A stretch of 64,000 bases of DNA from positions 169,194 to 233,193 of the forward strand of contig JAECQY010000001.1 of NCBI GenBank assembly GCA_016000045.1. The letters run 5' to 3'. This document shows, in pieces, positions 596 to 57,570 of the stretch; the stretch's first letter is position 1, and every line of letters begins with the position of its first letter. Under the pieces are notes generated by a model. It searched no databases. It saw only the letters and a list, made by a program, of their open reading frames with translations, and was not told the origin of the DNA. The stretch comes from Myxococcaceae bacterium (GTDB lineage: Bacteria > Myxococcota > UBA727 > JABDBI01). The position numbers and the translations under genes are program-made.

Positions 596-1094
596 CAGCG
601 GCGCGTCTATTGCAACAGAAGCAGGCATCTGATTTCTTGAAACATACGACTTGGCGATTGCTGTATTTCAGACGACCCCGTGAGGGGTTCAGGTGCCACA
701 GCCCAGCCAGAGGAGGTTGCTGAAAGCAACAGACGCTGGGCTGGGTTGTTGGGGTTATTGGGATTATTTGGATTATGGGTTATCTAGGCCATTTAGGTTA
801 TCCCGACATTTGTTGGCTCGACCACATAGAGAATATGCTCACAAAGGGAGTTGTGATAAAAGCCACGATTGTTTGGACCGATTGGGTGAATCCATCCGAT
901 TGTCTGAATGAATTCGGTTGGTGAGTCCATCCGGTTGTTTCAACCCAGCCCAGCGTCTGTTGCTTTCAGCAACCTCCTCTGGCTGGGCTGTGGCACCTGA
1001 ACCCCTCACGGGGTTGTCTGAAATACAGCGATCGCCAAGTCGTATGTTTCAAGAAATCAGATGCCTGCTCCTGTTGGGAGAGACGCGCTGGGTG
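596..1094. repeat. Large imperfect inverted repeat. Core arms 621-745 and 944-1068 differ at about 2 of 125 positions; a ~197-bp spacer lies between them, with nested hairpins and short direct repeats.
   Basis: The reverse complement of 944-1068 is near-identical to 621-745. The spacer carries direct repeats ggtgaatccatccgattgt and ggtgagtccatccggttgt. There is no transposase ORF; the small ORFs 508-1133 are judged spurious. Confidence 0.7.
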
Positions 1095-1195
1095 ATTTCG
1101 CGATTGCCCTGCGCAAGATACCGGCCCTCTTGAATCCTTGTGAATACGTCGGTACATACCACAAGTCTCAAAATTTATACTGTTTGGAATCGAAA

Positions 1196-2656
1196 ATGAA
1201 ATTATTTCTTTGGGCAATAGTCGGAGTGAGTTGTTTGGGTAGGGCTGAGCCGAAGCCTAATTTTCCCTGTGATTTGCCAATGCTTCGATTCTCCCTTTCA
1301 TCTGTTTCGGAGCAAGCACTCCCAGAACCTGCGATTCCAGCGGTGGTGACCACGGTGACGCAAAATGGGGGTGCTGTATCTTCCGTTGTGAGCGCGATCA
1401 CGGCGGTTGGCCCGACTCAAGTTGCTCAGACGGCTCGCTCTGGATTAAGCCTGGATTTACTCGCTTGCGACGACGGCCTGCCCATGCAGGAAGGTCCGCT
1501 GGATTGGGCAGATAGCCCCACCCAGCTATCTTTGGGTGAGGGTTCGCTTCAGTACCATACTGGAGCTGTTCTGGGGAACTGGGTTTTGATGGTGGGAGCG
1601 GTGGGCGTATGGAGTGGGGTTGCTTACAAGCTAGGTCCTGAGGCGGCGCAGTTTCCCGGGAGTTTGATACTGCCGGCCCTGCTTTTGATAGTTCCCACCG
1701 TGACTTCTTCGTTCACGCTGGCGCGAGATGGGGACAAGTCTTTACAAACAGCCGGCTCGGTCTCGATCCTGGTATCGCTGGCCAGCATCGCTGCGGTTGG
1801 CGTCAAGGTATGCCCTCGGTTTTTTAAGGCGCGCTGGGAAGACTATGAGCATGAATGGGTCGATTTATCCAACGCGCAAAGAGGTTGGGTGGCACGGTAC
1901 GGCGAGTTGTTTGATACCTACGCCGCGGGCCGACAAGGCTATATCGTGGTTGAATTGTTGACTTCGGTAGGCGTGGGGACTCTTAAATCGTATCAGATTT
2001 TAGAACAAAACTGCCAGGAGTTGTTATGGGCAGGCATGGTTGTTTACGATGCTTATGCCATTTCGCAATTGGCTTTGCGTCCCAATCGCAATCGTCATGC
2101 TCAAATTTTTTACAGCGCCATCGCGACACTTCAAGCGACAGCCCTGACCTTGCAAGCCATTGTTTCCGTCTCCGCTTCCGAAGAAACACAAAGCAAAGTG
2201 AAAACCGTGACTCAATCGGTCGTGGTGGTGACAGAGTATATGATGATGATTAAGACCTTGTTTGACATGGGTTTGCGCGTCAAGAGTTGGTACGATCGAT
2301 ACTACCGGCTCCATTCGGTTTCACTTCCGAAGCAGTCTGCTGGGTTGTCCACCCCGCAGCAAAATACGCCGTTGGAGGAGATGCTATCGGTTGCTTTCGT
2401 ACCGCCTTCGCAAGATACGTTGGTGGGTGAAATGCTACCCCTTGCTTGTGTACCGCTTTCGCTGGACTCCTTGGAGCCTATTGTTCCAGAGGCTTTGTCT
2501 CCGAGCGCATCGGTGTCGGGCGAAGAAAATTTGAAAGCGACTTTAGTCAGCGACTTTGGTTTCTTGGTCGAACAGAGCTCTTCAGTGGCTCCTGTGCCCA
2601 AAAGTTTAAATGAGGTCATTGCCGAACTGATGCAACAGGAGAGTGATCTTGAATAA
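1196..2656 (+). CDS. Hypothetical membrane/secreted protein with N-terminal signal peptide and TM segments; Pro/Ser-rich C-terminus containing a ~45-bp internal tandem duplication
   Basis: Long ORF with signal-like start MKLFLWAIVGVSCLG. Hydrophobic segments are present. No family recognised. Its end overlaps the start of the downstream DUF1566 gene. Confidence 0.4.
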   Translation: MKLFLWAIVGVSCLGRAEPKPNFPCDLPMLRFSLSSVSEQALPEPAIPAVVTTVTQNGGAVSSVVSAITAVGPTQVAQTARSGLSLDLLACDDGLPMQEGPLDWADSPTQLSLGEGSLQYHTGAVLGNWVLMVGAVGVWSGVAYKLGPEAAQFPGSLILPALLLIVPTVTSSFTLARDGDKSLQTAGSVSILVSLASIAAVGVKVCPRFFKARWEDYEHEWVDLSNAQRGWVARYGELFDTYAAGRQGYIVVELLTSVGVGTLKSYQILEQNCQELLWAGMVVYDAYAISQLALRPNRNRHAQIFYSAIATLQATALTLQAIVSVSASEETQSKVKTVTQSVVVVTEYMMMIKTLFDMGLRVKSWYDRYYRLHSVSLPKQSAGLSTPQQNTPLEEMLSVAFVPPSQDTLVGEMLPLACVPLSLDSLEPIVPEALSPSASVSGEENLKATLVSDFGFLVEQSSSVAPVPKSLNEVIAELMQQESDLE

Positions 2657-4046
2657 ACAATGGCTGTTTTGTTTGTTGTGGTTGTCCCGTTTTGGGTTGG
2701 CTGGATATTTCAATGTGAGCGAAGTGCAGGACTCCATGGCGAATGAAGCGCTTTTTCAGCTGATTTCGAATCAGACCTGGACTGTGAACCAACAACAAGC
2801 ATTGATGTCGACGGGTCTTCGCGCTCTATTTCAATCGGTTTCGCCGCAAATCAAGTCGATGCCCGATTACACCGGGCAGTTTGTCGCAAATTGTTCGATT
2901 TTTCTGAATCTGCGCATCGAAGGAGTCGCTTGTGACGTGACGTCGGTCTCGACAGCGATGAAGCCGAGCGGTTATGATTTGAACTCGGCCCTTCGCTTGC
3001 CTCTGGAATACGCGACGCAGATCACACAAAGCGACATCATCTTGGTCAATCTTTACGCGGATTGGAGAGGTAAGACGACGGCTTACTCGGAGCAATATAC
3101 GCTTGGTCCATTTGCTCGAATGCGAACTTGTACGTCAACGCTCAGCGTGACGGATTCACCCGAAACCCCAAGCGGTTTGCTGAGTTCGAGTGAGAGCCTC
3201 GAAGAGTCTCAAACAGCCGCCCCGAGTGTGTCCAAACCCTTCAGTCTTAGTCCCAATGTTCTGGTTTCGGATTCTCACAGCATGAGTTCTACGAGTTCTG
3301 GCAGTAGTGCGTCGGTATCACTTTTGGTTTCTTCAAGCGCGAGTTCATCCGGCTGGTTCAGCGAGTCCAAAAGCCTGACCGAAGCCTTATCACTCAGCCA
3401 GAGTTCAAGTATTCAGGTTTCGGACTCTCGCAGCATGAGTTCTACGAGTTCTGGCAGCAGTGTATCAGCATCGCTTTGGGTTTCTTCAAGCGCGAGTTCG
3501 TCGGGTTGGTTCAGCGAGTCTCAAAGCTTGAGCGAAGCCTTATCACCGAGCCAAAGCTTCAGCAAAATCCTTTCGGGGACTTGTAGTCCGAGTGTGTGGG
3601 GCAGTTGCTTGGGCAATTCTACGGGTTTGGCTTATATTTGGTCTGGTAGTGCCATTTATTCAAACCCAACCAATCAAGCATCGCGTTATACGACCCCTGC
3701 GTCCGGGGTTGTAGGAGATAGTTTAACCGGTTTGCAGTGGGAGCAAGCCGCAAGTAGTAGCACGATGACTTGGAGTGCAGCAGGGACCTATTGTGCGGGC
3801 CGTACGACGGGTGGATTGAGCGGCTGGCGTTTGCCAAACGTGGATGAGCTTCAAACTTTAGTGGACTACACCACCTCCAGCCCAAGTATTAACTCGGCCG
3901 CATTTCCCAGTACACCGAGTAACTATTTTTGGACCTCGACCCTCTACCAACCGAACCCAACTTCCGCGTGGCTCGTCTATTTCTTTCGTGGCGACGTCGG
4001 CTTCAGTGATATGAGCAATAATGGCTTTGTCCGTTGCGCGCGTTGA
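2643..4046 (+). CDS. Secreted DUF1566 (Lcl C-terminal domain, C-type-lectin-like fold) protein with Ser-rich linker; candidate DGR variable protein 1
   Basis: C-terminal domain carries the WRLP..EL motif and the ...FWTST...VRCAR terminus typical of DUF1566. An N-terminal module is shared with the ORFs at 52139 and 54905. The gene lies 27 bp upstream of a DGR-type RT. Confidence 0.7.
   Translation: MILNKQWLFCLLWLSRFGLAGYFNVSEVQDSMANEALFQLISNQTWTVNQQQALMSTGLRALFQSVSPQIKSMPDYTGQFVANCSIFLNLRIEGVACDVTSVSTAMKPSGYDLNSALRLPLEYATQITQSDIILVNLYADWRGKTTAYSEQYTLGPFARMRTCTSTLSVTDSPETPSGLLSSSESLEESQTAAPSVSKPFSLSPNVLVSDSHSMSSTSSGSSASVSLLVSSSASSSGWFSESKSLTEALSLSQSSSIQVSDSRSMSSTSSGSSVSASLWVSSSASSSGWFSESQSLSEALSPSQSFSKILSGTCSPSVWGSCLGNSTGLAYIWSGSAIYSNPTNQASRYTTPASGVVGDSLTGLQWEQAASSSTMTWSAAGTYCAGRTTGGLSGWRLPNVDELQTLVDYTTSSPSINSAAFPSTPSNYFWTSTLYQPNPTSAWLVYFFRGDVGFSDMSNNGFVRCAR
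3264..3570 (+). repeat. Tandem duplication, 2 x 153 bp (51 aa), encoding a Ser-rich linker inside the DUF1566 gene
   Basis: Two near-identical units start with gtttcggaytctcrcagcatgagttctacgagttctggcag. In protein they read SMSSTSSGSS...SSSGWFSES. Confidence 0.75.
3921..4046 (+). other. Candidate DGR variable region VR-A (3' end of the DUF1566 gene)
   Basis: Compared with the paralogous segment 5951-6076, differences fall in codon positions 1-2 with the third base kept in 15 of 18 differing codons. Upstream of the block, differences between the two genes are ordinary synonymous drift. Confidence 0.55.
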
Positions 4047-4073
4047 GGATGGGAGAATGAACAGGATGGGACT

Positions 4074-5621
4074 GTGAAAAAAGGTTGGCCAACTTGGGAA
4101 AGCGTCGATCGAGCTGCGGCTGCTTGCGCCAAGCGCAAGCGAAGCAGACCCGATGCGATTGTTTTTCGGGCCCGCTACACAGAAGAGGTGCTGGACTTGT
4201 GCCAGCGCATTCGATCGGGAGAATACCGGCCCTCCTCGGGGACGGTTTTCGTGACCGATCGCCCAAAGACTCGTGAAATACACGCCTCTCATTATCGAGA
4301 TCGAGTGGTTCACCACCTGCTCCATGACCTGATTGAACCGCACTTTGAACAATCGTTTATTAAAGATTCGTACGCTTGTCGTAAAGGCAAAGGTTCTCAT
4401 GCTGCGGTAGAAGCCTTGCAAAAACACATGCAGCGAGCGACCTGTTATGGCAAAATACGTGCTTATGCCCTGCATCTCGATATTAGAAGTTTTTTCTTCT
4501 CCATTCATAAACCCACCTTGCTGGCTATTTTGGAGTCGAAGCAATGGTTTCGTGAGCAGGCGGAATTGCGGCATTTGACCACTTTGGTGATCAATCACCC
4601 CACTGCGCTGCATGCGAAGCCCTTGGGGCCACCAAGCTCGTTTGAACGAATTCCTCCGTTGAAGCGGCTTGGAGCTTTGGGGGAGGATCGAGGACTCCCC
4701 ATCGGCAATCTGACCAGCCAGTTGTTTGCGAATATCTACTTGGATGTCTTGGACCAGATGATCAAGCGTACTTTAGGGGCTCAATATTACGTCCGGTATT
4801 CAGATGATCTGGTCTTGTTGCACCGCGATGCGGATCAGCTCGCGAGCTGGAAGCAACAAATCATCGAGTTTTTGCAGCAAAGGCTAAAACTGGAGACGCA
4901 TGAGAAAGCGCCAATTCATCCGGTGAGCGAAGGTGTCGATTTTGTCGGGTATGTCATTCGTCCTGCTTACAAATTGTGCCGTGCACGCGTGATTCGGCAC
5001 GCTCACCAACGTATTACCGAGCTCGAAAAACCGCTACACCCTGAAGAACGAGAAGGTTATCAGTTCTGGCGAGTACGTCACAAGGACATCGAGGCTTTGC
5101 GTGCTTGTTGGGCAAGTTATGCGGGTCATTTGAAACATGCCAGTGCTTATCGAGTGGCTCAAAAGTTGCTCAAGCGGCACCCTATCTCTCAATTCTATTT
5201 GCGCTTTGAGATTGCGAAGCATGGAATTTCTGTGGCTCGGCGATTTGCTTTGCCTAAGATTGAGTCTTGTTGGAATCACCAAATCCATTCGTTGCATCAG
5301 AGCGTCTCGAAACCAGCGCTCCGATCGGCAGAGGGTTCTGCGGTGTTGTTGGTTCAAGTGGGTCGTTATGCCGAGTGTCCTTTGCAGAAGGATGCAGAGC
5401 GTTTGGAACTTCGTCGGGGCTTACCGTGGCGTCGCTTGCCTGAGATCATCGACCGAGCGGTTCAAAAGGGTCTGAAAGTGGCAGTGGCTGTTGAGTTTAA
5501 AAAATGCACAGGGCGTATTAGAGCTCGTTATTTGGCGTACTGGGTAGAACCCGTGGCGCGGCCGGTACTGCTTTCTGAAGGTTCTCCCAAGGCTGTGCAG
5601 TTGGAATTCGGGTTTTCATGA
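4074..5621 (+). CDS. Reverse transcriptase, diversity-generating retroelement (DGR) type
   Basis: RT motifs are present in order: RPKTREI, RDRVVHHLL, YACRKGKGSHAAV, LHLDIRSFF, LPIGNLTSQLFANIYLD (the IGxxxSQ substitution typical of DGR RTs), YVRYSDDLVLL and GVDFVGYVI. There is a ~200-aa C-terminal extension. The stop overlaps the next start (ATGA). Confidence 0.85.
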   Translation: MKKGWPTWESVDRAAAACAKRKRSRPDAIVFRARYTEEVLDLCQRIRSGEYRPSSGTVFVTDRPKTREIHASHYRDRVVHHLLHDLIEPHFEQSFIKDSYACRKGKGSHAAVEALQKHMQRATCYGKIRAYALHLDIRSFFFSIHKPTLLAILESKQWFREQAELRHLTTLVINHPTALHAKPLGPPSSFERIPPLKRLGALGEDRGLPIGNLTSQLFANIYLDVLDQMIKRTLGAQYYVRYSDDLVLLHRDADQLASWKQQIIEFLQQRLKLETHEKAPIHPVSEGVDFVGYVIRPAYKLCRARVIRHAHQRITELEKPLHPEEREGYQFWRVRHKDIEALRACWASYAGHLKHASAYRVAQKLLKRHPISQFYLRFEIAKHGISVARRFALPKIESCWNHQIHSLHQSVSKPALRSAEGSAVLLVQVGRYAECPLQKDAERLELRRGLPWRRLPEIIDRAVQKGLKVAVAVEFKKCTGRIRARYLAYWVEPVARPVLLSEGSPKAVQLEFGFS

Positions 5622-6076
5622 AATTTGCACTAGGTTGCCGAATCGCTTTACTCTTGAATATTGGCTTGCTCGCTTGGCCCTTGCTGGCCATTTGTCGTTA
5701 TACCAATGAAAATGGAGCAGCTCTGACCCCGAGTGATCAGACCGTTCGAGACAGCGTGACAGGGCTAGTCTGGCAAAGAACTCAAGCTGCTTCGACCATG
5801 TCTCAAACGTCTGCAGCCAGTTACTGCGCGTCTTTGAATCTCAATGGCTTTTCATTCCGTTTACCGACGGTTCGTGAATTGTCCAGCCTCGTGGACTTCA
5901 ATACCTCCAGTCCCAGCATTGACTCAACGGCTTTTCCGGGAACCTCTTCTAACTATTTTTGGACCTCGACTACTTACCAACCGATCCCAACTTACGCGTG
6001 GGTCGTCGATTTCTATGGTGGCTTCGTCGACTTCAATGCTATGGGCGGTGATAACTCTGTCCGTTGCGCGCGCTGA
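5618..6076 (+). CDS. Small secreted/lipoprotein-like protein consisting of a single DUF1566 domain; candidate DGR variable protein 2
   Basis: Signal peptide MKFALGCRIALLLNIGLLAWPLLAIC, then a DUF1566 domain (FRLPTVRELSSL...FWTST...VRCAR). The start is translationally coupled to the RT stop. Confidence 0.65.
   Translation: MKFALGCRIALLLNIGLLAWPLLAICRYTNENGAALTPSDQTVRDSVTGLVWQRTQAASTMSQTSAASYCASLNLNGFSFRLPTVRELSSLVDFNTSSPSIDSTAFPGTSSNYFWTSTTYQPIPTYAWVVDFYGGFVDFNAMGGDNSVRCAR
5951..6076 (+). other. Candidate DGR variable region VR-B
   Basis: See VR-A. It shares the invariant flanks aactatttttggacctcgac and gtccgttgcgcgcgYtgaggatggga. Confidence 0.5.
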
Positions 6077-6185
6077 GGATGGGATGTTGACCCTTTGCCT
6101 CTTCGACCTTTTAAAAAGGAAACGGAAGACAAGGGGGGCGAGACAAGCTCATGATGGACGATACTCTCTGCCAATCGCTTGTCGT

Positions 6186-7142
6186 TTAAGGCAATTGAGC
6201 CGGGTCAATTAATCCAGCTTCGAGCTGCTCAATTTGCTCTCGCGGTAACTCGGTGGCGGTTGCGATAACAGACTTATCGAGCCCCAACTTTAAGAGTTTC
6301 ACCGCTGTTTCTACCTTGGCCTCTGCTTTGCCTTTCTCCAATCCGATAGCTTTGCCTCTTTCGAGTCCGACGGCCTCTCCTTCTGCTTGCCCCTGCGCCC
6401 GTCCTTTTGCTTCAGCGCAGAGATAGTAGTCTTGTTCTGAGACGCTTTGTTTGAGGTAGCGCCAATACTCGTTGCGTTCGGCATCGGTCATCTTGAGGAC
6501 TTGAAGGCGTTCAGCCACTTTGTCCATGCCTTTGGACTGAAAGTCTGCTCGGATTTGTTCGTTTTTGGCCATGTAAAGCCACTCATCGATTTCGCTTTGC
6601 ACTTCATCGTTAAATTTTGGAATGCAAATGAAAAAATATTCTGGAAACACATTGTAGATATCCAAGTTTTTCGAAGCGCGAGTGGACAGATGCAGCGATA
6701 CCGGGTTTTGGGTGTCTATTTCATGAATAATCGTTTGCCCAAAGGCCAAGGCGTGGTTCATCTGAGGGACTTCAAAATACAACAAGCTGATGTGAAAGAC
6801 TTTCTTAATCTGGGTAAAATCTTGACCTAACTCGAGACTGTCGATGATTCTGCGGGAAGTGTTAAAACAGGCTTTATGAGCAAAGTGGGTGGTATAAGAA
6901 CGTTCAATCTCAACCATGTATTTGACACCATTGGCGTCTTCTACCACCAAGTCTGCGATGCTTCGTTTTTGATTTTTGGCTTCTTTCTGGCTTTCTGGAT
7001 CGATTAAGGCCTTAATCTTAACGGGTGGGTAACCCTCGGTGGCTAAAAGAGCGGATAAGAAACTTTCAATAATGTCATAATCGGCCTGGTTTTTGAGCAG
7101 GTACTTAATGGCATAATCGAAACTGACTAAGGGCTTCTCCAT
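6186..7142 (-). CDS. Rpn/PDDEXK_2-family PD-(D/E)XK nuclease (recombination-promoting nuclease / putative transposase family)
   Basis: Motif DLVVEDANGVKYMVEIE fits the nuclease core. The C-terminal charged repeat region (AEAKGRAQGQAEGEA...) is typical of this family. Confidence 0.55.
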   Translation of the reverse strand: MEKPLVSFDYAIKYLLKNQADYDIIESFLSALLATEGYPPVKIKALIDPESQKEAKNQKRSIADLVVEDANGVKYMVEIERSYTTHFAHKACFNTSRRIIDSLELGQDFTQIKKVFHISLLYFEVPQMNHALAFGQTIIHEIDTQNPVSLHLSTRASKNLDIYNVFPEYFFICIPKFNDEVQSEIDEWLYMAKNEQIRADFQSKGMDKVAERLQVLKMTDAERNEYWRYLKQSVSEQDYYLCAEAKGRAQGQAEGEAVGLERGKAIGLEKGKAEAKVETAVKLLKLGLDKSVIATATELPREQIEQLEAGLIDPAQLP

Positions 7143-47642: not shown

Positions 47643-48777
47643 TGGGCAGAATCGATTTTCGGGCGAACTTTCCATCGAGCCGTCCCGTGAGGATACCGCC
47701 TCCTAGAAGGACATCGCCATCGTATGCAACGGCTGCTTGTCCAAGTGCTATCGCATGAGCCGGCTCGAAAAATTCGAAGACCAACTCACCATTGGGATCG
47801 ATCGACCAATGGGCGCGCTGCGGCTCGTGCCTCGAACGAATTTGCACCCACACTTCCTTGGGCCAATCAGCGGTTGGCACGATGGCTTTGATGGGGCTTG
47901 CACTCACCTTGGAACAAGCTAACGCAGACTTCGGTCCCAGCGTCACGATTTGTTCGGTTGGATCCAGGTCTACGACATAGCTTCGCTCGCCAAGCCCGAT
48001 CCCGATTCCACGACGTTGGCCAATGGTAAAGTGATGAATGCCGGAGTGATTTTGAATGTGTTGACCATCCGATCGACGCATTTCTCCTGTGGGCATGGGT
48101 CCGGAGGCATTTTCAACCACCTTGGCATGGTCTCCGTCGGGAACAAAGCAGATTTCGTGGCTATCGGGTTTGTCGTGAACTTTGAGGCCCATTTTCTGGG
48201 CCAGTGCCCGAACTTGGGGTTTAGGAAGATCGGCTAAAGGCAGGTGAAGGTGCTGAATGACTTCCGGATCGGTGCCGTAGAGATAATAGGTTTGGTCTCG
48301 GGAACGATCCAGCGGACGGGATAAAGTTTTATGGCCCTGATAGGTCACGATTTTAGCGTAGTGACCGGTGGCTAGCGAGGCTCCTAAGGCTTTGGCTGTT
48401 TGGTAGAGATCGCCGAACTTGACTTCGTGATTGCAAGCGAGGCAAGGAATGGGGGTCTGCCCGGATCGATAAGCTTTTACAAAGGGTTCAAAAACGATTT
48501 CTTTGAAGCGCTCGCGGGAGTCGATGGCGTAGAATGGGATCTGAAGTCGATCGCAAATCTGCCGTGCATCCGTCATGTCGTCGATTGAGCAACATCGACC
48601 TTCACGCTTCTCAAGAGAGCCATGATCGTCAGGAGCTAAACGAAGCGATACACCAATAACCTCATGACCTTGCTCTTTTAAAAGCAACGCAGCAACCGAG
48701 GAATCAACTCCTCCCGAAAGTGCAACAACGATTTTCACAGTGTCTTGCAGGATAAGCTGTTCTTTCAGACTAGGCAA
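47563..48777 (-). CDS. mnmA: tRNA-specific 2-thiouridylase MnmA
   Basis: PP-loop VVALSGGVDSSVAA. Its 3' end overlaps the fliR 3' end (convergent). Confidence 0.85.
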   Translation of the reverse strand: MPSLKEQLILQDTVKIVVALSGGVDSSVAALLLKEQGHEVIGVSLRLAPDDHGSLEKREGRCCSIDDMTDARQICDRLQIPFYAIDSRERFKEIVFEPFVKAYRSGQTPIPCLACNHEVKFGDLYQTAKALGASLATGHYAKIVTYQGHKTLSRPLDRSRDQTYYLYGTDPEVIQHLHLPLADLPKPQVRALAQKMGLKVHDKPDSHEICFVPDGDHAKVVENASGPMPTGEMRRSDGQHIQNHSGIHHFTIGQRRGIGIGLGERSYVVDLDPTEQIVTLGPKSALACSKVSASPIKAIVPTADWPKEVWVQIRSRHEPQRAHWSIDPNGELVFEFFEPAHAIALGQAAVAYDGDVLLGGGILTGRLDGKFARKSILPTNPAKQSSSEIAPEAARSRLPTSSES

Positions 48778-48817
48778 TCGGAGACCTGAATGTTAGTGGA
48801 TTTAAAAGGAGTCTGAA

Positions 48818-49345
48818 ATGCGTATTTTTGTCTTAGGAACCCTGTTGTTGTCTTGGGTCTTGCAGGCGGAGCAAAAAATTGGAGTCGTAGACCTCGAGAG
48901 AGCAATCAATGAAGTGGAAGAGGGGAAAGAGGCGAAAACCAAGCTCCAAGGCGAATTCAAAAAAAAGCAGGATCTTTTAGATAAAAGACAGAACAAGTTA
49001 AAGAAGCTGCAAGACCAAATTCAAACTCAAGCGATCACACTGACAGAAGAAGCACGGCAACAAAAAGCCATGGAGTTTCAACAAGAAGTCGCGGAGGCAC
49101 AGCAGCTCTACGCAACCATGCAACAAGATATGGTCAAGCGTCAGCAGGAAGTCATGGGCACCATTCTGAAAAAAATGAACCCAATTGTCGAAGATATCGC
49201 CAAAAAAGAGGGCTATACCCTCATTTTAAACAAAAGCGAGGCAACCGTCCTTTATATCCAACCTGGATTGGATCTGACCCATACGGTGACCGAGCGTTAT
49301 AACGGGCTTCATCCTTTATCCGTTTCCAAGCCTAAAAAGAAATGA
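48818..49345 (+). CDS. skp: Periplasmic chaperone Skp/OmpH family
   Basis: Signal peptide plus a coiled coil rich in Lys, Gln and Glu. Confidence 0.7.
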   Translation: MRIFVLGTLLLSWVLQAEQKIGVVDLERAINEVEEGKEAKTKLQGEFKKKQDLLDKRQNKLKKLQDQIQTQAITLTEEARQQKAMEFQQEVAEAQQLYATMQQDMVKRQQEVMGTILKKMNPIVEDIAKKEGYTLILNKSEATVLYIQPGLDLTHTVTERYNGLHPLSVSKPKKK

Positions 49346-50539
49346 AGGCTCTCTCAACAACATCAGCGTGAACGCTTTCGTGAGGAGTAACGCGACTGAA
49401 CAAAAGACAATCAACGCGGTCTGTCTCGGTTGATGATGCTTGATGAGTTCATGACGGGTTGGTTTGCAGAACATGAAAGCGGCCAAGCGAGCGATCGGGG
49501 TCATCGCTAGCACGATCGCTGCGATGGATAAGGCGATGAACCAAATCTTCGATTCTGCGAGAGCTTTCTGGGTGAAAGCCTCGTAGAATGAAAATCCTAC
49601 TGTAAAGGGAAGACCGCCAATGGAACTGAGAATGGACAACCAGGCAAAGGAGATCCACGGGTGCTTTTGTCCTGCTCCTGCCAAATCTTCCCAATTTTTA
49701 TCCGATTGTCGCCGATGTTTCCAGAAATGCAGGCCCATAATGGCTCCTGGGACTGAGAACGCAATTTGCAAGTAGAAGATGGGCAGCATGTGAGGGGCAT
49801 GGAGCGCGGTTAAAATCAATATTCCGCTTTGCGTGGTGAGCAAGAAAGAAACAAGCCGATCGATACGCGTTTGATCCAGAGCCGCAAAAGCAGGTAAGAT
49901 GAGCGATGCAAACCCAAATGCGGTTAATGGAATCGTCAAGCGCGGGTCTGTTTTGTTGGCACAAAGGACTTGCAGCAAAGGCCCTCCCGAGATTAAAGAA
50001 CCCGCAAAAAAGTGGATGCTGGCGAATGAGGGAGCGCCGTCGAGCGTGTCTACGAAGCGCAAGACAAATGGAGAAGCTCCAATCCAAAATAGCGCAGCCA
50101 TCAAGAGGGAAATCTCTAAAAATCCATCGCTTTGCTTCGTGAGTTCTGAAAATTGCAAGGAATAGCCGTGCTGAGTAGCCCAAGCCAGAATGAAAGAGAG
50201 AAAGCAAAACTGAGAAAGCGATAGGAAGCTTAGTTTGATGGCGATTTCAGCAACTCGTTTGCCGTGATTGCGAAAATAAGTGAGCCCGATCCAGGCAATA
50301 TTCAGAACCGAACCCATGCAGGTAAAAGACAAAAGATCGCTGGCTTGGCAAAGCTTAAAGAGTAAGAGCTGCGCCAAACCCAGTAGAAAGTAGGGTTCAA
50401 AGCTCTGAAATTGCGCGTTTCGCAGACTGACGGCTGTCGTTATCAGCGTGAGGATTCCCAAAATGCTCAAAGCGCAGAGCAAGATCGAATGGTTCCATTG
50501 TGAGCTTAAGGTAAAAAATTCGATTAAAAACGATGAGAT
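49316..50539 (-). CDS. Complex-I subunit N/M-like or MnhD-like proton-antiporter membrane subunit
   Basis: Polytopic protein. GLPFTVGFSFYEAF resembles the antiporter family. Start taken at MISSFL, which overlaps the stop of the upstream gene by 1 nt. Confidence 0.45.
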   Translation of the reverse strand: MSSFLIEFFTLSSQWNHSILLCALSILGILTLITTAVSLRNAQFQSFEPYFLLGLAQLLLFKLCQASDLLSFTCMGSVLNIAWIGLTYFRNHGKRVAEIAIKLSFLSLSQFCFLSFILAWATQHGYSLQFSELTKQSDGFLEISLLMAALFWIGASPFVLRFVDTLDGAPSFASIHFFAGSLISGGPLLQVLCANKTDPRLTIPLTAFGFASLILPAFAALDQTRIDRLVSFLLTTQSGILILTALHAPHMLPIFYLQIAFSVPGAIMGLHFWKHRRQSDKNWEDLAGAGQKHPWISFAWLSILSSIGGLPFTVGFSFYEAFTQKALAESKIWFIALSIAAIVLAMTPIARLAAFMFCKPTRHELIKHHQPRQTALIVFCSVALLLTKAFTLMLLREPSFLFRLGNG

Positions 50540-51192
50540 CATAGGAGAAAAGCCAGCGTAAAAAGCAAGATAGCAAGGACGGAGTTGTGAACCAGCGAGA
50601 TCCATTTTCGGGTTGCGAACACGAGCCCCAGGCAAAGATTTAAAAGCGATAGCAGCGTTAAGCAAAGACCTAGAAGCGTTTTACTGGGCTGATGGGTTGT
50701 TAGAATCAGAAAAGCGTAAGCGGGGCTTTGCATCATAAAAAGGTAAACAAATCGCTCTTGCCTACTTTGGGTGGAGAGAGAATGAATGAAGGCCAAGATG
50801 CAAGAAAAGCCAACGAGCCATTGGAGCAATTCGGGGTGAGGGCATGGGGACGGGACTTGCATAAGCCAGGCGAGTCCAACGGGAGTCATGGTTGCGAAAG
50901 TCAAAACTTGAATCGAAGTAGGGCATTCAAAGAGTAAGCTTCGAACGTGCGGAGCTGCCAAAATAAACCACATGCGTGCCAGAGCAGGCAAGAGAATGAT
51001 CCAGTACGCCCATGAAGTACGAGCGAAATAGGCAAAATAGGCACAGAGATCAATCACGAGAAAATAGATGAACGCTTCGTAAGAGATGCTGACTTTGTAG
51101 AGCCCGCCGCGCATGGCAATGACGAAAAGCAAAATACTGATATGCACGAAGGCAAATCCGCAGAGCAAAGAGAAAGGTTCAAGCTCGGACAT
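50539..51192 (-). CDS. Polytopic membrane protein of unknown function (part of the same membrane module)
   Basis: 217 aa; multiple TM segments. Confidence 0.3.
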   Translation of the reverse strand: MSELEPFSLLCGFAFVHISILLFVIAMRGGLYKVSISYEAFIYFLVIDLCAYFAYFARTSWAYWIILLPALARMWFILAAPHVRSLLFECPTSIQVLTFATMTPVGLAWLMQVPSPCPHPELLQWLVGFSCILAFIHSLSTQSRQERFVYLFMMQSPAYAFLILTTHQPSKTLLGLCLTLLSLLNLCLGLVFATRKWISLVHNSVLAILLFTLAFLL

Positions 51193-51337
51193 AGTATAGA
51201 GTCCATAGAACGAAGCTTAGCAGGGCCCAGAAAAGAGATTTTTGAGCATTGGCATCGAAAAAGGGGCGTAGTGCCGCTCGCGCGATCGAAAAGAGCATAT
51301 TCGGGATCGTGATCCAAATCAGGTAAAGAGCGTTCAC

Positions 51338-51598
51338 TCAGTTTCCATATTCCTTGATTTCGTCCATGTGAAGAGTCCCATGATGGCGCCAAAGAAATGT
51401 GATTAAAACTCCAAACAGCGTGATCTGTAAACCGAAGACAATCGACAAGAGCCAGGCGATATCCAGAGCCTTGTTCTCCGTTAAAATGCAAGCGATTCCA
51501 GCAAAAGTAAGCATGAAAGCCAATGCAATTGCGAATAGATTTCTTCGAACCAAGAGCCCAAGCAGGCCTAACAGGATAAGACTGATTTCAACGAACAT
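51338..51598 (-). CDS. NuoK/MnhC-like small membrane subunit
   Basis: LLGLLGLLVRRNLFAIALAFMLTFAGIA is similar to the NuoK/MnhC signature. Confidence 0.45.
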   Translation of the reverse strand: MFVEISLILLGLLGLLVRRNLFAIALAFMLTFAGIACILTENKALDIAWLLSIVFGLQITLFGVLITFLWRHHGTLHMDEIKEYGN

Positions 51599-52007
51599 GG
51601 TGACGTGAGAACAGAAAGGCGACGGTGAAAGTTGCCAAAATAGCTACGGGTAGGATCCAAGTCAGATTGGAGAAAGACGGAACGGAGTAGGTGGGCAGCG
51701 AAGTGCTTGCGAAATCCAGATGCCTCATTTCCCAGGCGGCAAAAAGCAGAGTCAGAGCGCGCAGAAATTTCCCCAGCCGGAACCGTCTTTTTCTGAATCT
51801 CTGAGGGTCATCCGGAATGAGCCAAGACACTCCCAATAGAAAAGCGGCAGGAAAGATCAAAAGTGGTTGTCCAACCAATGGCATGATCAGGAGGATAAAA
51901 GCTACGCTGTAGAGCGAGCTCTTGACGAGGGTTACGAGAAAACTCAGCAAGAGAATCAACCCATGAAGGTCGGGGAATGGTAAATCGGTCATGGCAGGCG
52001 CAATCAT
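51588..52007 (-). CDS. MnhB-like membrane protein
   Basis: 139 aa; TM segments; position upstream of the MnhC-like gene. Confidence 0.3.
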   Translation of the reverse strand: MIAPAMTDLPFPDLHGLILLLSFLVTLVKSSLYSVAFILLIMPLVGQPLLIFPAAFLLGVSWLIPDDPQRFRKRRFRLGKFLRALTLLFAAWEMRHLDFASTSLPTYSVPSFSNLTWILPVAILATFTVAFLFSRHHVR

Positions 52008-52138: not shown

Positions 52139-54502
52139 TTGCGAATGGCGATTAAGAAAAATCTAAAAACCCAAGCACGGTGCTTTAGGCAAGCAAAGCT
52201 GCTGGTATTCTTAATTTGGGGACAAACCGCTGTTGCTGCCTGGCTTAATCAAAGCCAGGTAACGAATGCCGTGGCGAATCAGGCACTAACCCAGCTTGTT
52301 TCGAACCAGACATTGCCTGCCGCCCAGCAAAAACAATGGTTCTCGACCGGATTGAAGGCCTTGTTTGCCGAGCTAACTCCGGCGATTCAAGCGATGCCAG
52401 ATTATACGGGCCAGTTTGTAGCCAATTGTTCCATTTTCATGAACACTCACATCGAGCAGGTTTTGTGCGAGATCAACTCCACGACTGCTTTGGTGAGACC
52501 CGAGAGTTGCGGACAGAGTTCCTTACTTCCTTTGGAATATGAGCATCAAATTACCGAAAGCGCGATTTTGCTGGTGAGTTTTTACGCTGATTGGACGCGT
52601 AAGACGTCGTTATCCTCCGAATCTTATGCCGTTCGTTTGTTCGATCGGATGCCAACGTGCACCGCGTCTGCGAGCGTTTCAGAGACAGGGCCAATACTCA
52701 GCCAAACCTTGAGCCCTACTGAGTCTACCTCTTTGAATTTTACGATAAGCCCAAGTGCTCCTGTGGTTTGGAACCCCGAGTGGGCAAATTGGCAGATAAC
52801 GACCGGTGTCTATCAAGACAACGCCAATCAAACGGGCCGCTACCTTGAATCGGTTCCAGGAGTTATCACGGATCAAATGACGGGTTTGCAGTGGCAAAAA
52901 GTAGGGAGTGCGCCTGCGGGTAATTGGACGGCTGCGCAGGCCTATTGCGCTAATTTGTTTGAGTCTGGGTTTGGGGATTGGCGTTTGCCCGCGCACGTGG
53001 AACTTCAGACTTTGGTGGATTATACGATGGATTGCGCTGGTCCCAGCGTGGATCTGAATTTTTTCCCAGGCGCTCAAACCAGCAGTTACTATTGGTCCTC
53101 GGACGCTTTACAGGGTTACCCTGGCAGTGCTTGGTGGGTGAGCTACGGTAGTAGTGGTGCCTATTACGCAGGCCTCGTTTGCAGCCAGGGTTATGGTGCT
53201 TGTTCTTCAGTGCCTGCGAGCGGCTTTGCCCGTTGTGTGCGACCCTCGTTGGCAGATCGAGAGATAGATCGTTACACCTTTAATAGCACGCAGGTTCTGG
53301 ACACCGTAACGGGCTTGATTTGGCAGCGAACGGTTTCTGGAACTTATAACTGGGGTGCAGCGCAGGCTTATTGTGCGGGTTTGAATCTGGACGGTTTGAT
53401 CTGGCGTCTTCCGAATGTTAAAGAGTTATCGACGCTTCTGGATGTTCGCATAGCATCTCCGGGTCCGACGATCAATACGACGGCTTTTCCGAGTACACCT
53501 CAGGCTGGGTTTTGGACATCAACGCCTTGTTCGTGTGCGTCTTCATCCGTCGCGTGGCTGGTCGATTTCATCTATGGTTCTGTGTCCTACACTGGCATGG
53601 GCACTTTTGACTATGTTCGTTGTGTGCGCTCTCCTCAGGTTTACAATCCCGAGTGGGCGAATTGGCAAGTGACAACGGGCGTCTATCGAGACAACGCTAA
53701 TCAAACGGGCCGCTACCTTGAATCGGTTCCAGGAGTTATCACGGATCAAATGACGGGTTTGCAGTGGCAGAAAGTAGTGAGTGCGCCTGCTGGCAATTGG
53801 ACGGCTGCGCAAGCCTATTGTGCTAATTTGTTTGAGTCTGGGTTTGGAGACTGGCGCTTGCCCACGCACGTAGAACTTCAGACTTTGGTGGATTATACGA
53901 TCAGTTGCACTGGTCCCAGCGTGGATCAGGATTTTTTCCCAGGTACTCAAACCAGCAGTTACTATTGGTCCTCCGACGCTTTGCAGGGTTACCCTGGAAG
54001 TGCTTGGTGGGTGAGTTACGGCACCGGTGCCTATTACGCGGGCCTTGTTTGCAGCCAGGGCTATGGCGTCGCTTGTCCTTCGGTGCCCGCGAGCGGTTTT
54101 GCCCGTTGTGTGCGACCTTCGTCGGCAGAACGAGAGGAGGATCGTTATGCCTTCAACAGCACCCAGGTGCTGGACACCGTGACGGGCTTAATTTGGCAAC
54201 GGATGGTTTCCGGAACTTACAGCTGGAGTGCAGCGCAGGCTTATTGTACGGGTTTAAATCTGGACGGTTTGAGCTGGCGCCTTCCGAATGTCAAAGAGCT
54301 ATCGACGCTTCTGGATGTTCGCATGGCATCTCCGGGTCCGACGATCAATACGACGGCTTTTCCGAGTACACCGCAGGGCGGCTTTTGGACATCAACGCTT
54401 TATACGTGTTCCTCATCCAACGCCTGGGCGGTCTTTTTCGATAATGGCTACGTCGCCTTCAATGATATGAGCTCTTCTTACTGTGTCCGTTGCGCGCGTT
54501 GA
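52139..54502 (+). CDS. Large secreted protein with shared N-terminal module and four DUF1566 domains in two ~874-bp tandem units; candidate multi-VR DGR target
   Basis: Four WRLP..EL motifs. Units 52763-53636 and 53637-54502 are near-identical except at the tips of domains 2 and 4 (FWTST...VRCVR/VRCAR). Confidence 0.65.
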   Translation: MRMAIKKNLKTQARCFRQAKLLVFLIWGQTAVAAWLNQSQVTNAVANQALTQLVSNQTLPAAQQKQWFSTGLKALFAELTPAIQAMPDYTGQFVANCSIFMNTHIEQVLCEINSTTALVRPESCGQSSLLPLEYEHQITESAILLVSFYADWTRKTSLSSESYAVRLFDRMPTCTASASVSETGPILSQTLSPTESTSLNFTISPSAPVVWNPEWANWQITTGVYQDNANQTGRYLESVPGVITDQMTGLQWQKVGSAPAGNWTAAQAYCANLFESGFGDWRLPAHVELQTLVDYTMDCAGPSVDLNFFPGAQTSSYYWSSDALQGYPGSAWWVSYGSSGAYYAGLVCSQGYGACSSVPASGFARCVRPSLADREIDRYTFNSTQVLDTVTGLIWQRTVSGTYNWGAAQAYCAGLNLDGLIWRLPNVKELSTLLDVRIASPGPTINTTAFPSTPQAGFWTSTPCSCASSSVAWLVDFIYGSVSYTGMGTFDYVRCVRSPQVYNPEWANWQVTTGVYRDNANQTGRYLESVPGVITDQMTGLQWQKVVSAPAGNWTAAQAYCANLFESGFGDWRLPTHVELQTLVDYTISCTGPSVDQDFFPGTQTSSYYWSSDALQGYPGSAWWVSYGTGAYYAGLVCSQGYGVACPSVPASGFARCVRPSSAEREEDRYAFNSTQVLDTVTGLIWQRMVSGTYSWSAAQAYCTGLNLDGLSWRLPNVKELSTLLDVRMASPGPTINTTAFPSTPQGGFWTSTLYTCSSSNAWAVFFDNGYVAFNDMSSSYCVRCAR

Positions 54503-54540
54503 GGATGGGATGTTGATCCTTTGACTTTTGACCTTTTAAT

Positions 54541-54607
54541 AAAGAAAATGGAAGGCAGTAGGGCCCGAAATAGGCACTGGCTCGTTAGCTTCTGGGAAAG
54601 ATACGTT
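54541..54607. repeat. Intergenic repeat family B, copy 1 (~67 nt), downstream of a DUF1566 gene
   Basis: aaagaaaaYggaaggcagYagggYYcgaaataggcWctg...agcttSTgggaaagatacgtt. Second copy at 57570-57636; partial match at 6106-6125. Confidence 0.55.
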
Positions 54608-54807
54608 GCATGAAGTTCTTGAGGAAGACATCGCTGCTGTAGATGTCAAGTCGTTTCTTGGTAAGCGCTGGTCCTTGATGGGAGCGCAATTTCGTGCGAG
54701 TCATAGGATGAAATAGTGGTTGTCGCGTTTAGGGAGAGCACTTAGAGTGTATCGAGAGAATTGCTTCCGATTTGAGCGTTCGTTTGTATCCTTGCCTGCG
54801 TCGGGGT

Positions 54808-54817
54808 GGGGGGGGGG
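54808..54817. repeat. Homopolymeric G10 tract (preceded by GGGGT) ~87 bp upstream of DUF1566 gene 54905
   Basis: Direct read: tcggggtgggggggggg. Candidate slipped-strand phase-variation site in a promoter/5' UTR. Confidence 0.5.
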
Positions 54818-54904
54818 TAAATATAGTCATTTTAACTGTTTCATATTTGAATTTAATAATATATACTTGATTCAACTTCGCCCCCATGAGAAGGGGTGTG
54901 AACG

Positions 54905-57445
54905 ATGAATCGGTATTTGTGCTCCTGGCTGTTATTGCTGTCTTTACCGGTTCAAGCGGGTTTTGTGCTTCGAGAAGGCTTCTCCGAAGTTCTGAGTCAA
55001 CAGTTTTCAAATCTGACGCAGCTTAAGAATCAAACGAGCTCTTTATCCAAAGAGCTTGTGACACAAAATGCCATGAGGGGATTATGGTCTCTCATTGGGC
55101 CTCATCTTCAAGCCTTACCGGGTTGTTGTAAGAAGCCTTTTAGCTCAAATTGCTCTGTGTTTTTCGATGCCGAAATTGATGAGGTTGTGTGTGATGCGCA
55201 ATTTGAAGAGGTTCAAGCAATTTCGACATCTTGCGAAGCCGAGCAACGGTTTCCAGTGGGTTATTTGGCGCAGTTACACAAGAGCAATATTCTCCAGACG
55301 CGCATTGTCGTGGGTCTGGCGCCTGTGCAACATCCGCAGGTGATGTATTGGTTGTATGATAAATTGCCACCGACGCTTTCACAATCTGTGACACAATCAA
55401 ATTCCATGAGTGGCCGCAACACTCAAACCGGCACAGATTCCGCAAGCCCGATGAATAGCACCACGGATTCTGTTGGCCCAACGAGTAGTTTTACAGAGAG
55501 TTTATTGTCGAGCAGGAGCGTGTCGTTTAGCTCAACTGCCACTGAATCATTGACTCCAAGCCATTCGGTTGCAACAGAATCGGCTAATCTGTCGCATTCT
55601 TTGAGTGGGAGCACTGTTCCGTGCACGAGCGAGAGCTTGTCTCATTCTCAAACTTTGAGTTCTACCCAGTACCCATCGTTCAGTTCAAGCCTGAGTCCCA
55701 GTGCTCCCGTGGTTTGGAACCCTGAGTGGGCGGATTGGCAAGTGACAACGGGTGTTTATCGAGATAATGCCAATCAAACGGGCCGCTATTTTGAATCCGT
55801 TCCGGGGGTTATCACGGATCAGATGACGGGTTTGCAGTGGCAAAAGGTAGGGAGTGCATCTGCGGGCAATTGGATTGCTGCCCAGGCCTATTGCACAGAT
55901 TTGTTTGAGTCTGGGTTTGGAGACTGGCGTTTGCCCACGCACGTGGAACTTCAGACCTTGGTGGATTATACGATCAGTTGCGCTGGGCCCAGTGTGGATC
56001 TGGGTTTTTTCCCAGGCACGCAAACCAGCAGTTACTATTGGTCCTCCGACGCTTTGCAGGGTTACCCTGGGAGTGCTTGGTGGGTAAGTTACGGCAGCGG
56101 TGCTTATTACGCGGGTCTCGTTTGCAGTCAGGGCTATAGCGGTTGTTCTTCAGCGCCTGCGAGCGGCTTTGCCCGTTGTGTGCGATCCTCATCGGCGGTT
56201 CGAGAGGTGAATCGTTATGCCTTTAATAGCACCCAGGTACTGGACACGGTGACGGGCTTGATTTGGCAACGAACGGTTTCCGGAACTTACAACTGGGGTG
56301 CGGCGCAAGCTTATTGTGCGGGTTTGAATCTGGATGGTTTGAGCTGGCGCCTTCCGAATGTCAAAGAATTATCGACGCTTCTGGATGTTCGTGTGGCATA
56401 CCCGGGTCCAACGATCAATACGACGGTTTTTCCGAGTACACCGCAGAGCGGCTTTTGGACCTCAACGCCTTATTCGTGTGTGTCTTCATCTAACGCGTGG
56501 TTGGTTGGTTTTGACTGTGGTTACGTCATCTTCAATGGTTTGAGCCCTGCTGGCTATGTTCGTTGTGTGCGCTCTCCTCAGGTTTACAATCCCGAGTGGG
56601 CAAATTGGCAAGTGACAACCGGTGTCTATCAAGACAGCGCCAATCAAACGGGCCGCTACCTTGAATCGGTTCCAGGAGTTATCACGGATCAAATGACGGG
56701 TTTGCAGTGGCAAAAAGTAGAAAGTGCGCCTGCAGGCAATTGGACGGCTGCGCAGGCTTATTGTGCTAATTTGTTTGAGTCTGGGTTTGGAGACTGGCGT
56801 TTGCCCACGCACGTGGAACTTCAGACCTTGGCGGATTATACGATCAGTTGCGCTGGGCCGAGTGTGGATCCGGACTTTTTCCCAGGCACTCAAACCAGCA
56901 GTTACTATTGGTCCTCAGACGCTTTGCAGGGTTACCCTGGCAGTGCCTGGTGGGTGAGTTATGGGAGCGGTGCCTATTACGCAGGCCTCGTTTGCAGCCA
57001 GGGTTATGGTGGTTGTACTTCAGTGCCTGCGAGCGGCTTTACGCGTTGTGTGCGACCCTCGTCGGCGGTTCGAGAGGTAGATCGTTATACCTTTAATAGC
57101 ACACAAGTTCTGGACACCGTAACGGGCTTGATCTGGCAACGAACGGTTTCAGGGAATTACAACTGGGGTGCAGCGCAAGCTTATTGTGCGGGTTTAAACC
57201 TCGACGGTTTGAGCTGGCGTCTTCCCAATGTCAAAGAATTGTCAACGCTTCTGGATGTTCACGTGGCATACCCGGGTCCGACTATCAACACGACGGTTTT
57301 TCCAGGCACGCCTCAGGCCTGGTTTTGGACATCAACGCCTTATTCGTGCGCGTCCCCGTCCGGTGCGTGGGGCGTGGATTTCGGTAATGGCGGCGTCTTC
57401 ACGGTTAGCATCAGCAATACTTACTATGTTCGGTGCGTGCGTTGA
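54905..57445 (+). CDS. Large secreted protein with Ser/Thr-rich linker and four DUF1566 domains in two ~867-bp tandem units; candidate multi-VR DGR target
   Basis: Signal peptide MNRYLCSWLLLLSLPVQAG. Units about 55718-56584 and 56585-57445. Hypervariable tips on domains 2 and 4. Confidence 0.65.
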   Translation: MNRYLCSWLLLLSLPVQAGFVLREGFSEVLSQQFSNLTQLKNQTSSLSKELVTQNAMRGLWSLIGPHLQALPGCCKKPFSSNCSVFFDAEIDEVVCDAQFEEVQAISTSCEAEQRFPVGYLAQLHKSNILQTRIVVGLAPVQHPQVMYWLYDKLPPTLSQSVTQSNSMSGRNTQTGTDSASPMNSTTDSVGPTSSFTESLLSSRSVSFSSTATESLTPSHSVATESANLSHSLSGSTVPCTSESLSHSQTLSSTQYPSFSSSLSPSAPVVWNPEWADWQVTTGVYRDNANQTGRYFESVPGVITDQMTGLQWQKVGSASAGNWIAAQAYCTDLFESGFGDWRLPTHVELQTLVDYTISCAGPSVDLGFFPGTQTSSYYWSSDALQGYPGSAWWVSYGSGAYYAGLVCSQGYSGCSSAPASGFARCVRSSSAVREVNRYAFNSTQVLDTVTGLIWQRTVSGTYNWGAAQAYCAGLNLDGLSWRLPNVKELSTLLDVRVAYPGPTINTTVFPSTPQSGFWTSTPYSCVSSSNAWLVGFDCGYVIFNGLSPAGYVRCVRSPQVYNPEWANWQVTTGVYQDSANQTGRYLESVPGVITDQMTGLQWQKVESAPAGNWTAAQAYCANLFESGFGDWRLPTHVELQTLADYTISCAGPSVDPDFFPGTQTSSYYWSSDALQGYPGSAWWVSYGSGAYYAGLVCSQGYGGCTSVPASGFTRCVRPSSAVREVDRYTFNSTQVLDTVTGLIWQRTVSGNYNWGAAQAYCAGLNLDGLSWRLPNVKELSTLLDVHVAYPGPTINTTVFPGTPQAWFWTSTPYSCASPSGAWGVDFGNGGVFTVSISNTYYVRCVR

Positions 57446-57476
57446 AGACGGGATTTTTACTTTTTATTTTTATAAA

Positions 57477-57570
57477 ATTGGCAATAAGCTCCAAAGTTTA
57501 CGGAAGTAATTGAGAACCCAATTCATGACAGCGCGTCTAAACGCCATAATTTATTTTGACGGGAACCGAA
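57477..57570. repeat. Intergenic repeat family A, copy 2
   Basis: See 12089-12180. Confidence 0.6.

Follow-up and report, generated by a model that had tools for sequence, protein, structure and literature searches.

How can a genomic region hold an apparently sound reverse transcriptase (RT) of a diversity-generating retroelement (DGR), together with genes ending in what look like variable repeats (VRs), and yet have no template repeat (TR)? The question is raised by 64,000 nucleotides of DNA from a Myxococcaceae bacterium (contig JAECQY010000001.1 of assembly GCA_016000045.1, positions 169,194 to 233,193; hereafter the window). An initial annotation, made from the letters alone, had described an intact-looking DGR RT with VR-like gene ends and had offered three explanations for the missing TR: that it had been overlooked, that the element is degenerate and has lost it, or that the template is remote. 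Comparison with related loci favors the second. The region probably holds a DGR cassette of the type that combines Avd with an RT carrying a MutS-like part, with targets of the Lcl_C/DUF1566 family, whose template was lost in a deletion by recombination between the VR of the upstream target, gene A (VR-A), and the TR, and whose VRs would now be frozen. The apparent paradox of a good DGR RT and diversified VRs with no template would then be explained by the deletion, and no new biology is needed.

The absence of a TR from the window was borne out by four independent searches, two of them aimed at the TR itself and two, given below, at avd and at the leader RNA. Both strands were scanned without gaps, using probes of 134 nt and 60 nt taken from four VRs (VR-A to VR-D) and counting any adenine in the subject as a match; only the VRs themselves were recovered. 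The best match other than a VR had 94 of 134 positions compatible and 46 of 134 identical. This spurious match fell in an A-rich open reading frame (ORF) resembling Skp/OmpH (48818-49345), where 40 of 134 positions are incompatible; a TR near 48.9 kb is ruled out. This ORF, rich in Lys and Gln, lies in a region of strong positive AT skew (up to 0.29) at 48000-52000. A blastn-based detector that calls pairs with at least five mismatches, at least 80% of them at A of one copy, returned no TR/VR pair in the window, as against a pair in 56 of 85 other loci scanned; it overlooks some true pairs, for example in L006, one of the numbered related loci used below. Pattern scans of genome, metagenome (two patterns) and viral contig collections returned nothing, not even the VRs of the window, so this genome is not among them.

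The VR-like copies themselves had been described as coding C-termini with non-A differences, and this holds. Direct repeats at 3861-4054 in gene A and 5891-6084 in gene B, 78% identical over the last ~190 nt, are both in-frame C-termini of Lcl_C/DUF1566 proteins. Over 134 nt VR-A and VR-B have 23 mismatches, with A in copy A at 7 and A in copy B at 7, and neither can be taken as the TR of the other. TR2, the TR of a second cassette from the same sample, was rejected as template of VR-A, VR-B and VR-C, from each of which it differs by 20-26 mismatches at non-A positions. The 3′ extension of the RT gene, also considered as a site, encodes a conserved, putatively MutS-domain-I-like (MSL) protein domain and has no A-tolerant match. 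For VR-A, VR-B and VR-C no A-restricted TR/VR pair was found anywhere in the window, close to the RT or farther away, and a TR missed within these 64 kb is excluded.

Bona fide TR/VR pairs are present at loci homologous to that of the window RT (RT1). L002, L004 and L006 have the order target(VR)-avd-leader RNA-TR-RT, and L003 has the same layout, with only the last 25 nt of the upstream VR on its contig. In L002 (GCA_037134615.1), whose RT is 62% identical to RT1, the target VR is followed by avd, ~150 nt, a TR rich in AAY codons and, after 21 nt, the RT. The contig of L090 (RT 61% identical) starts inside the AAY-rich TR, which is followed by AGATGGGAGAATG...GTG AAA AAA GCG TGG; avd and the target are not visible in it. 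Among the 13 relatives of the MutS-like type that were checked, 12 have a TR that stops 0-47 nt short of the RT start, and in two homologs, P0068 and P0072, gene callers have placed the TR within the predicted protein, as extra residues ahead of the RT, which accounts for the Lcl_C Pfam match of these proteins. A small Lcl_C target that overlaps the RT stop codon comes after the RT in L003 and L006.

Directly 5′ of the TR, between the avd stop codon and the TR start, this DGR clade has a conserved, structured leader RNA of ~165 nt. Its structure comprises eight helices and 40 pairs, with 91.9% of cells paired compared to 32-47% in slid controls. Compensatory changes are seen at 27 of the 40 pairs compared to 7-11 in the slid controls, and none of 500 shuffles reached the observed value. 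Motifs are conserved at the 5′ end (GGCGTGCC..CCCGTGCGG) and ~25 nt before the TR (GCGCACAAGAG). The RNA, which has no match in Rfam release 15 at E <= 1, is probably part of the scaffold of the DGR template RNA. A covariance model (R1) recovered its training loci at E values of 1e-24 to 1e-35 and the loci outside the training set (the weaker matches in Table 1) at 2e-6 to 2.5e-3; in the latter the leader RNA models locate the element adjoining the TR. In the window the leader RNA was found neither with an nhmmer profile (best E 0.56) nor with R1 run with filters off (best 8.5 bits, E 0.64). An Avd profile searched against the six-frame translation of the window found no avd (best E 0.26; relatives as controls, 1e-65 to 1e-72). 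The intact look of this DGR is true of its RT gene and not of the remainder of the cassette, from which TR, avd and leader RNA are all missing.

On comparison with these loci, what occupies the TR slot upstream of RT1 is VR-A, the in-frame and diversified 3′ terminus of gene A, with a flank of the TR type behind it. Gene A ends 27 nt before RT1, the homology of VR-A stops at 4054, 19 nt ahead of the RT1 start at 4074, and VR-A is joined directly to a TR-type flank, GGATGGGAGAATG...GTG. In an alignment (A1) this flank falls among those of the TRs of L002, L003 and L004 and apart from the flanks of VRs. GATGGGAGAATG...GTG follows the AAY-rich TR in L002 and L090, and the same is found in the window. 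After GGATGGG the flank of VR-A, AGAATGAACAGGATGGGACT-GTG, agrees with the TR flank of the closest relative, L002, AGAATGTGAAGGAGGGGGGT-GTG, at 14 of 20 positions, as counted by eye, with the same spacing to GTG. Homology to the TR of L003 extends to 4064 for VR-A (10 nt further) and ends at the end of the block resembling an initiation of mutagenic homing (IMH) sequence for VR-B, VR-C and VR-D. VR-B and VR-C keep a VR-type flank (ATGTTGA..TTTG..TTCGACC), like the VRs of relatives, and the flank of VR-D is also T-rich and of the VR type. The last variable codons of VR-A are ggc ttt, of the VR type, where the TRs of relatives have aac tat. With VR-type codons before it and a TR-type flank after it, the switch from VR to TR is placed within the 27-nt block at 4028-4054; nowhere else do VR-A and the inferred TR of this cassette (TR1) match exactly over so long a stretch.

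These observations suggest how the template was lost. The ancestral layout would have been gene A(VR-A)-VR flank-avd-structured leader RNA-TR1-RT1-gene B(VR-B), as it still is in relatives, with VR-A and TR1 as direct repeats ~0.7 kb apart that flanked avd. Recombination or replication slippage between the two, inside the 27-nt IMH block, would have excised ~0.7 kb, taking out avd and the leader RNA together with the flank of VR-A and all of the adenine-rich body of the TR. The remnant would be the diversified VR of gene A fused to the 3′ flank of the TR, 19 nt before the RT start codon. RT1 would then be without a template RNA, and because of this VR-A, VR-B and VR-C would be frozen and stay as records of past adenine mutagenesis. 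The degenerate DGR with a lost TR, one of the explanations offered at the outset, is accordingly the one we favor; the cassette belongs to a known DGR clade, in degenerate form, and does not represent a new system. The scar is unusually legible, in that the lesion is mapped to within 27 nt. Nothing specific on deletions by VR-TR recombination was found in the literature.

A junction without avd could also arise as an assembly artefact, or as a minority allele among genomes most of which still have gene A-avd-TR1-RT1. Metagenome assemblers are known to stumble over repeats shared by VRs and TRs. Logan contigs from the second cassette (DGR-2) stop within VRs, and in one metagenome-assembled genome (MAG 1) a break falls within the gene C repeats. 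Set against this, gene order and sequence agree in three assemblies. Gene A (MBH2005893.1 and MBH1988892.1), the RT and gene B have consecutive accessions in two deposited MAGs, whose contigs break at different places, and a Logan contig is identical to window 1040-6963. VR-A and VR-B are 100% alike between assemblies, which may share the same reads. The block common to VR-A and TR1 is only 27 nt long, below the k = 31 that we assume for the Logan assembler, so that junction k-mers would have to exist in the reads, and no avd-bearing contig of run SRR9332771 other than that of DGR-2 turned up. We regard this explanation as improbable; on present evidence the junction is not a product of misassembly.

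Several points weigh against a deletion that silenced the cassette. The scans covered 64 kb of a 249-kb contig in an incomplete MAG, and a second copy of TR1 may lie elsewhere. No decay is seen in the RT1 ORF, and its translational coupling to gene B persists, from which it follows either that the deletion was recent or that RT1 is still in use. An identical block of 27 nt is short for recombination of the RecA type. A further point concerns one base of the IMH block. In relatives the VRs have GGACGGG and the TRs GGATGGG; in the window GGATGGG occurs at 4047-4053, 6077-6083 and 54503-54509, VR-B and VR-C thus bearing the TR-type T, and VR-D has AGACGGG. The cassette of RT1 (DGR-1) may lack this distinction between IMH and IMH*, or cDNA transfer may have run past it.

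If a copy of TR1 does exist beyond the window, with or without an avd of its own, DGR-1 could still be active. Action in trans over a distance is seen here, VR-C being 48 kb from RT1 and VR-D matching a TR on another contig, and such a template would be compatible with both the intact RT1 ORF and the reach of the scans. The known trans-acting TR belongs to DGR-2. This cassette occupies positions 1-2706 of L003, which is Logan contig SRR9332771_47513 from the same run (SRR9332771) as the sample of the window, and is a complete DGR with avd, leader RNA, TR2, RT2 and a small Lcl_C target, plus the end of an upstream VR. RT2 is 50% identical to RT1. Its proteins (MBH2006909, MBH2006910 and MBH2006912) lie ~1,000 accessions after those of the window, so that DGR-2 is probably part of the same MAG; look-ups of RT2 and Avd2 led to the 2.7-kb Logan contig only, not to the 54-kb NCBI contig. 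Between TR2 (L003 616-714) and VR-D (57350-57448) there are 17 mismatches, 16 of them at adenines of TR2 and none where VR-D has A, which makes gene D a remote target of DGR-2 and not of the lost TR of RT1. The suggestion of a remote TR was therefore right for gene D. TR2, the sole TR known in the sample, cannot have written VR-A, VR-B or VR-C, given the mismatches cited above. Among the best 120 Avd homologs only the Avd of DGR-2 bears the label of this MAG; another three candidates were looked up and proved to be from other samples. A TR far from its RT would also be at odds with the 12 of 13 relatives described above, and the slot in the window has the TR's own 3′ flank fused to a VR, as in a deletion scar and not in a cassette that never had a TR there. 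A remote TR1 that keeps DGR-1 active is therefore rather unlikely, though of the alternatives it is the one we rate highest.

The hybrid of VR-A and TR flank might itself act as template. Gene A would then end in a TR that is also coding sequence, used by RT1 either without Avd or with the Avd of DGR-2. The hybrid lies in the exact position of a TR and retains both the 3′ flank of the TR and the beginning of the RT gene, a region that by analogy with Bordetella would presumably contain the priming spacer. Its AAY codons number only 4, where the inferred TR1 has 10. Non-A differences from it number 16 in VR-B and 10 in VR-C, and so neither was rewritten from VR-A. About a quarter of curated DGRs lack avd (Wu et al., 2018, PMC5758913); here the leader RNA is missing as well, and both are present in close relatives with upstream sequence. 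We consider such a template very unlikely, and marginally less likely still that the coding 3′ end of gene A has become a self-encoded template of RT1, a diversified target turned into the template of other targets. Deletion of TR1 remains the preferred account.

RT1 is, by its sequence, an RT of the DGR clade, and its gene is apparently intact. It has the motifs IGNLTSQ and YSDD, corresponding to motif 4, (I/L)GxxxSQ, and YxDD, and it retains all 59 columns that are invariant in 25 aligned homologs. Its closest relative of solved structure is a 328-aa chain named 'Reverse transcriptase' (8ub7, E 7e-35), which we take to be the bRT of Bordetella phage; group II intron RTs match at 6e-11 or worse. 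RT1 starts with GTG, and the sequence GTG AAR AAA GCG TGG CC is common to L002, L090 and the window. Its 3′ extension is common to the whole RT clade, of which more distant members score as Pfam MutS_I. In RT1 alone the MutS_I match is below Pfam significance, and the domain is tentatively assigned by alignment over the full length to homologs P0046 (MutS_I E 1.5e-9) and P0068 (E 2.8e-7). RTs with MutS_I-like extensions and MSL accessory genes have been described, including three RTs with the MutS-like part fused to them (Wu et al., 2018, PMC5758913).

The VRs retain evidence of what the cassette once did. Differences between VR-A and VR-B fall at codon positions 1, 2 and 3 in the numbers 9, 11 and 3, compared to 5, 3 and 11 in the 20 codons upstream (Fisher p = 0.003). 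This bias toward positions 1 and 2 points to adenine-directed diversification of AAY codons in the past. VR-A, VR-B and VR-C all bear the signature, which is a record of past activity only. VR-A and VR-B both end in GTCCGTTGCGCGCG(T/C)TGAGGATGGGA, and the motif GTCCGTTGCGCGCG occurs in the window solely at 4029, 6059 and 54485, the last at the end of gene C, 48 kb from RT1, which ends with the same IMH block. VR-C and VR-D had not been part of the initial annotation. VR-C is of the TR1 type only in its 3′ ~86 nt (54425-54510), which is followed by the IMH and a VR-type flank as in VR-B. Its last 80 nt have 15-16 mismatches to VR-A and VR-B, mainly at codon positions 1 and 2, and its first 54 nt have 26-27, of which few are at A; in its 5′ half VR-C is more like the gene C/D family. 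Such a chimera would fit partial-length retrohoming into a remote target 48 kb from RT1. No hairpin like that of Bordetella was found after the IMH (z-scores at or above 0). T-rich direct repeats (TTGAC/TTCGAC/TTTTGA) occur in VR 3′ flanks of the window (6085-6130, 54511-54550 and 57454-57480), of L002 (1005-1050) and of L004 (9250-9300); they may serve the clade for recognition of targets, or may just mark a terminator region.

In all four target genes, A to D, the Pfam Lcl_C match runs to the C-terminal residue of the protein (Table 1). Gene A is a paralog of gene C, with 39% identity in the N-terminal part (E 8e-41), and the ATG of gene B overlaps the RT1 stop codon. Genes C and D (52139-57445) have their four Lcl_C domains in a duplicated two-domain arrangement, and a stop codon and IMH follow only the last domain of each. 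Two internal Lcl_C domains (53507-53640 and 56450-56583) were rejected as VRs, having ~30 non-A mismatches each and neither stop codon nor IMH. Gene A has two in-frame tandem copies of 153 nt, 84% identical, in a Ser-rich linker (3241-3546), and a 531-aa ORF upstream of it has two in-frame copies of 51 nt (2359-2460). Directly downstream of gene B, on the minus strand (6186-7142), is a gene for an Rpn-family PD-(D/E)XK recombination-promoting nuclease/putative transposase (Pfam PDDEXK_2 E 3e-17; TIGR01784 E 1e-16); any link between it and the deletion is pure speculation.

Table 1. Coordinates of the features discussed, in the window unless a related locus is named.
Feature	Position	Strand	Basis
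Gene A, 465-aa Lcl_C/DUF1566 surface-protein paralog, upstream DGR target	2649..4046	+	Pfam Lcl_C aa 355-467, E 1.4e-31
VR-A body, diversified, in the TR position of relatives	3921..4028	+	codon-position bias, A vs B
IMH-like block (T)GTCCGTTGCGCGCGTTGAGGATGGGA, common to VR-A, VR-B and VR-C	4028..4054	+	motif match; inferred crossover zone
TR-type 3′ flank, also RT leader, GGGAGAATGAACAGGATGGGACT, then GTG start of RT1	4052..4073	+	alignment A1
RT1, DGR-clade RT, 515 aa	4074..5621	+	Pfam RVT_1, motifs, structure match
Putative MSL C-terminal domain of RT1	5271..5558	+	full-length alignment to homologs with Pfam MutS_I match
Gene B, small 152-aa Lcl_C target with N-terminal signal-like segment	5618..6076	+	Pfam Lcl_C, E 9e-30
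VR-B: body 5951-6058, IMH 6059-6084, VR-type T-rich flank ATGTTGACCCTTTGCCTCTTCGACCTTTT	5951..6130	+	
Gene C, 785 aa, four Lcl_C domains, remote DGR-1 target	52145..54502	+	Pfam; accession MBH2005939.1
VR-C, chimeric	54425..54550 (134-nt match 54377-54510)	+	IMH at 54485, flank alignment
Gene D, 846 aa, four Lcl_C domains	54905..57445	+	Pfam; accessions MBH2005940.1 and MBH1989488.1
VR-D with DGR-2-type IMH GTTCGGTGCGTGCGTTGAAGACGGGA, a diverged IMH version	57350..57453	+	
Leader RNA in related loci	L002 1448-1612; L003 452-616; L004 9703-9867; L006 4145-4317; L089 475-640; L086 1623-1790		
Weaker leader RNA matches	L025, L008, L010, L012, L007, L015		

A route to decay seems to be built into this layout. 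VR and TR are direct repeats on either side of avd, and one crossover in the IMH block would remove avd, leader RNA and TR together, leaving the targets frozen in whatever state they held. Decay by internal deletion can also be seen in relatives: L086 (1234-2479) and L087 (GCA_031415295.1) retain an intact avd and leader RNA, directly after which come no more than the final ~60 codons of an RT-MSL gene and then a small Lcl_C gene, the TR and most of the RT having been deleted. For annotation the lesson is one of caution, as an RT and VR-like tips do not make an active DGR, and the VRs of one region can belong to different cassettes: A, B and C to the lost TR1, D to TR2 on another contig. The covariation-supported leader RNA of ~165 nt is a by-product of possibly more lasting use.

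Among known systems, the DGR of Bordetella phage BPP-1 (mtd-avd-TR-brt) has an RT of the same clade with the (I/L)GxxxSQ motif found in RT1. As in that element, the VRs of the window lie at the C-termini of their targets, have a GC-rich, IMH-like block at the 3′ end, and differ mainly at codon positions 1 and 2, consistent with AAY template codons. Unlike BPP-1, the window lacks TR and avd, its several targets are Lcl_C/DUF1566 proteins and not Mtd, its context is chromosomal, RT1 has a C-terminal extension of ~185 aa that includes the putative MutS-I-like domain, and no stable hairpin follows the IMH. The DGR of Legionella pneumophila (LdtA; target category 'd', MSL architecture D) resembles the present cassette in its DUF1566/CLec2-type, surface-protein-like targets and, as in the relatives of the window, in combining a MutS-like component with a cassette of the Avd type (Wu et al., 2018, PMC5758913). 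It differs in that its MutS-like part is a separate gene, not fused to the RT, and the window cassette has neither avd nor TR. In the scheme of the same authors the avd-TR-RT architecture is type B1 (Wu et al., 2018, PMC5758913); the profile search found no avd in the window. Closest are L002, L090, L003 and L006, which share the RT-MSL protein, the Lcl_C targets and the TR 3′ flank GATGGGAGAATG...GTG; unlike the window, L002, L003 and L006 still have, in the interval from the upstream target to the RT, avd, the leader RNA of ~165 nt and a TR rich in AAY codons. With a DGR-clade RT gene and no usable TR-VR pair, the window cassette resembles the inactivated or incomplete elements that made up over half of the candidate DGRs and were discarded from the curated set (Wu et al., 2018, PMC5758913). 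It stands apart from the usual inactivated DGR in having an RT ORF that is intact, not truncated, and a lesion that is mapped to within one short block at the end of a VR.

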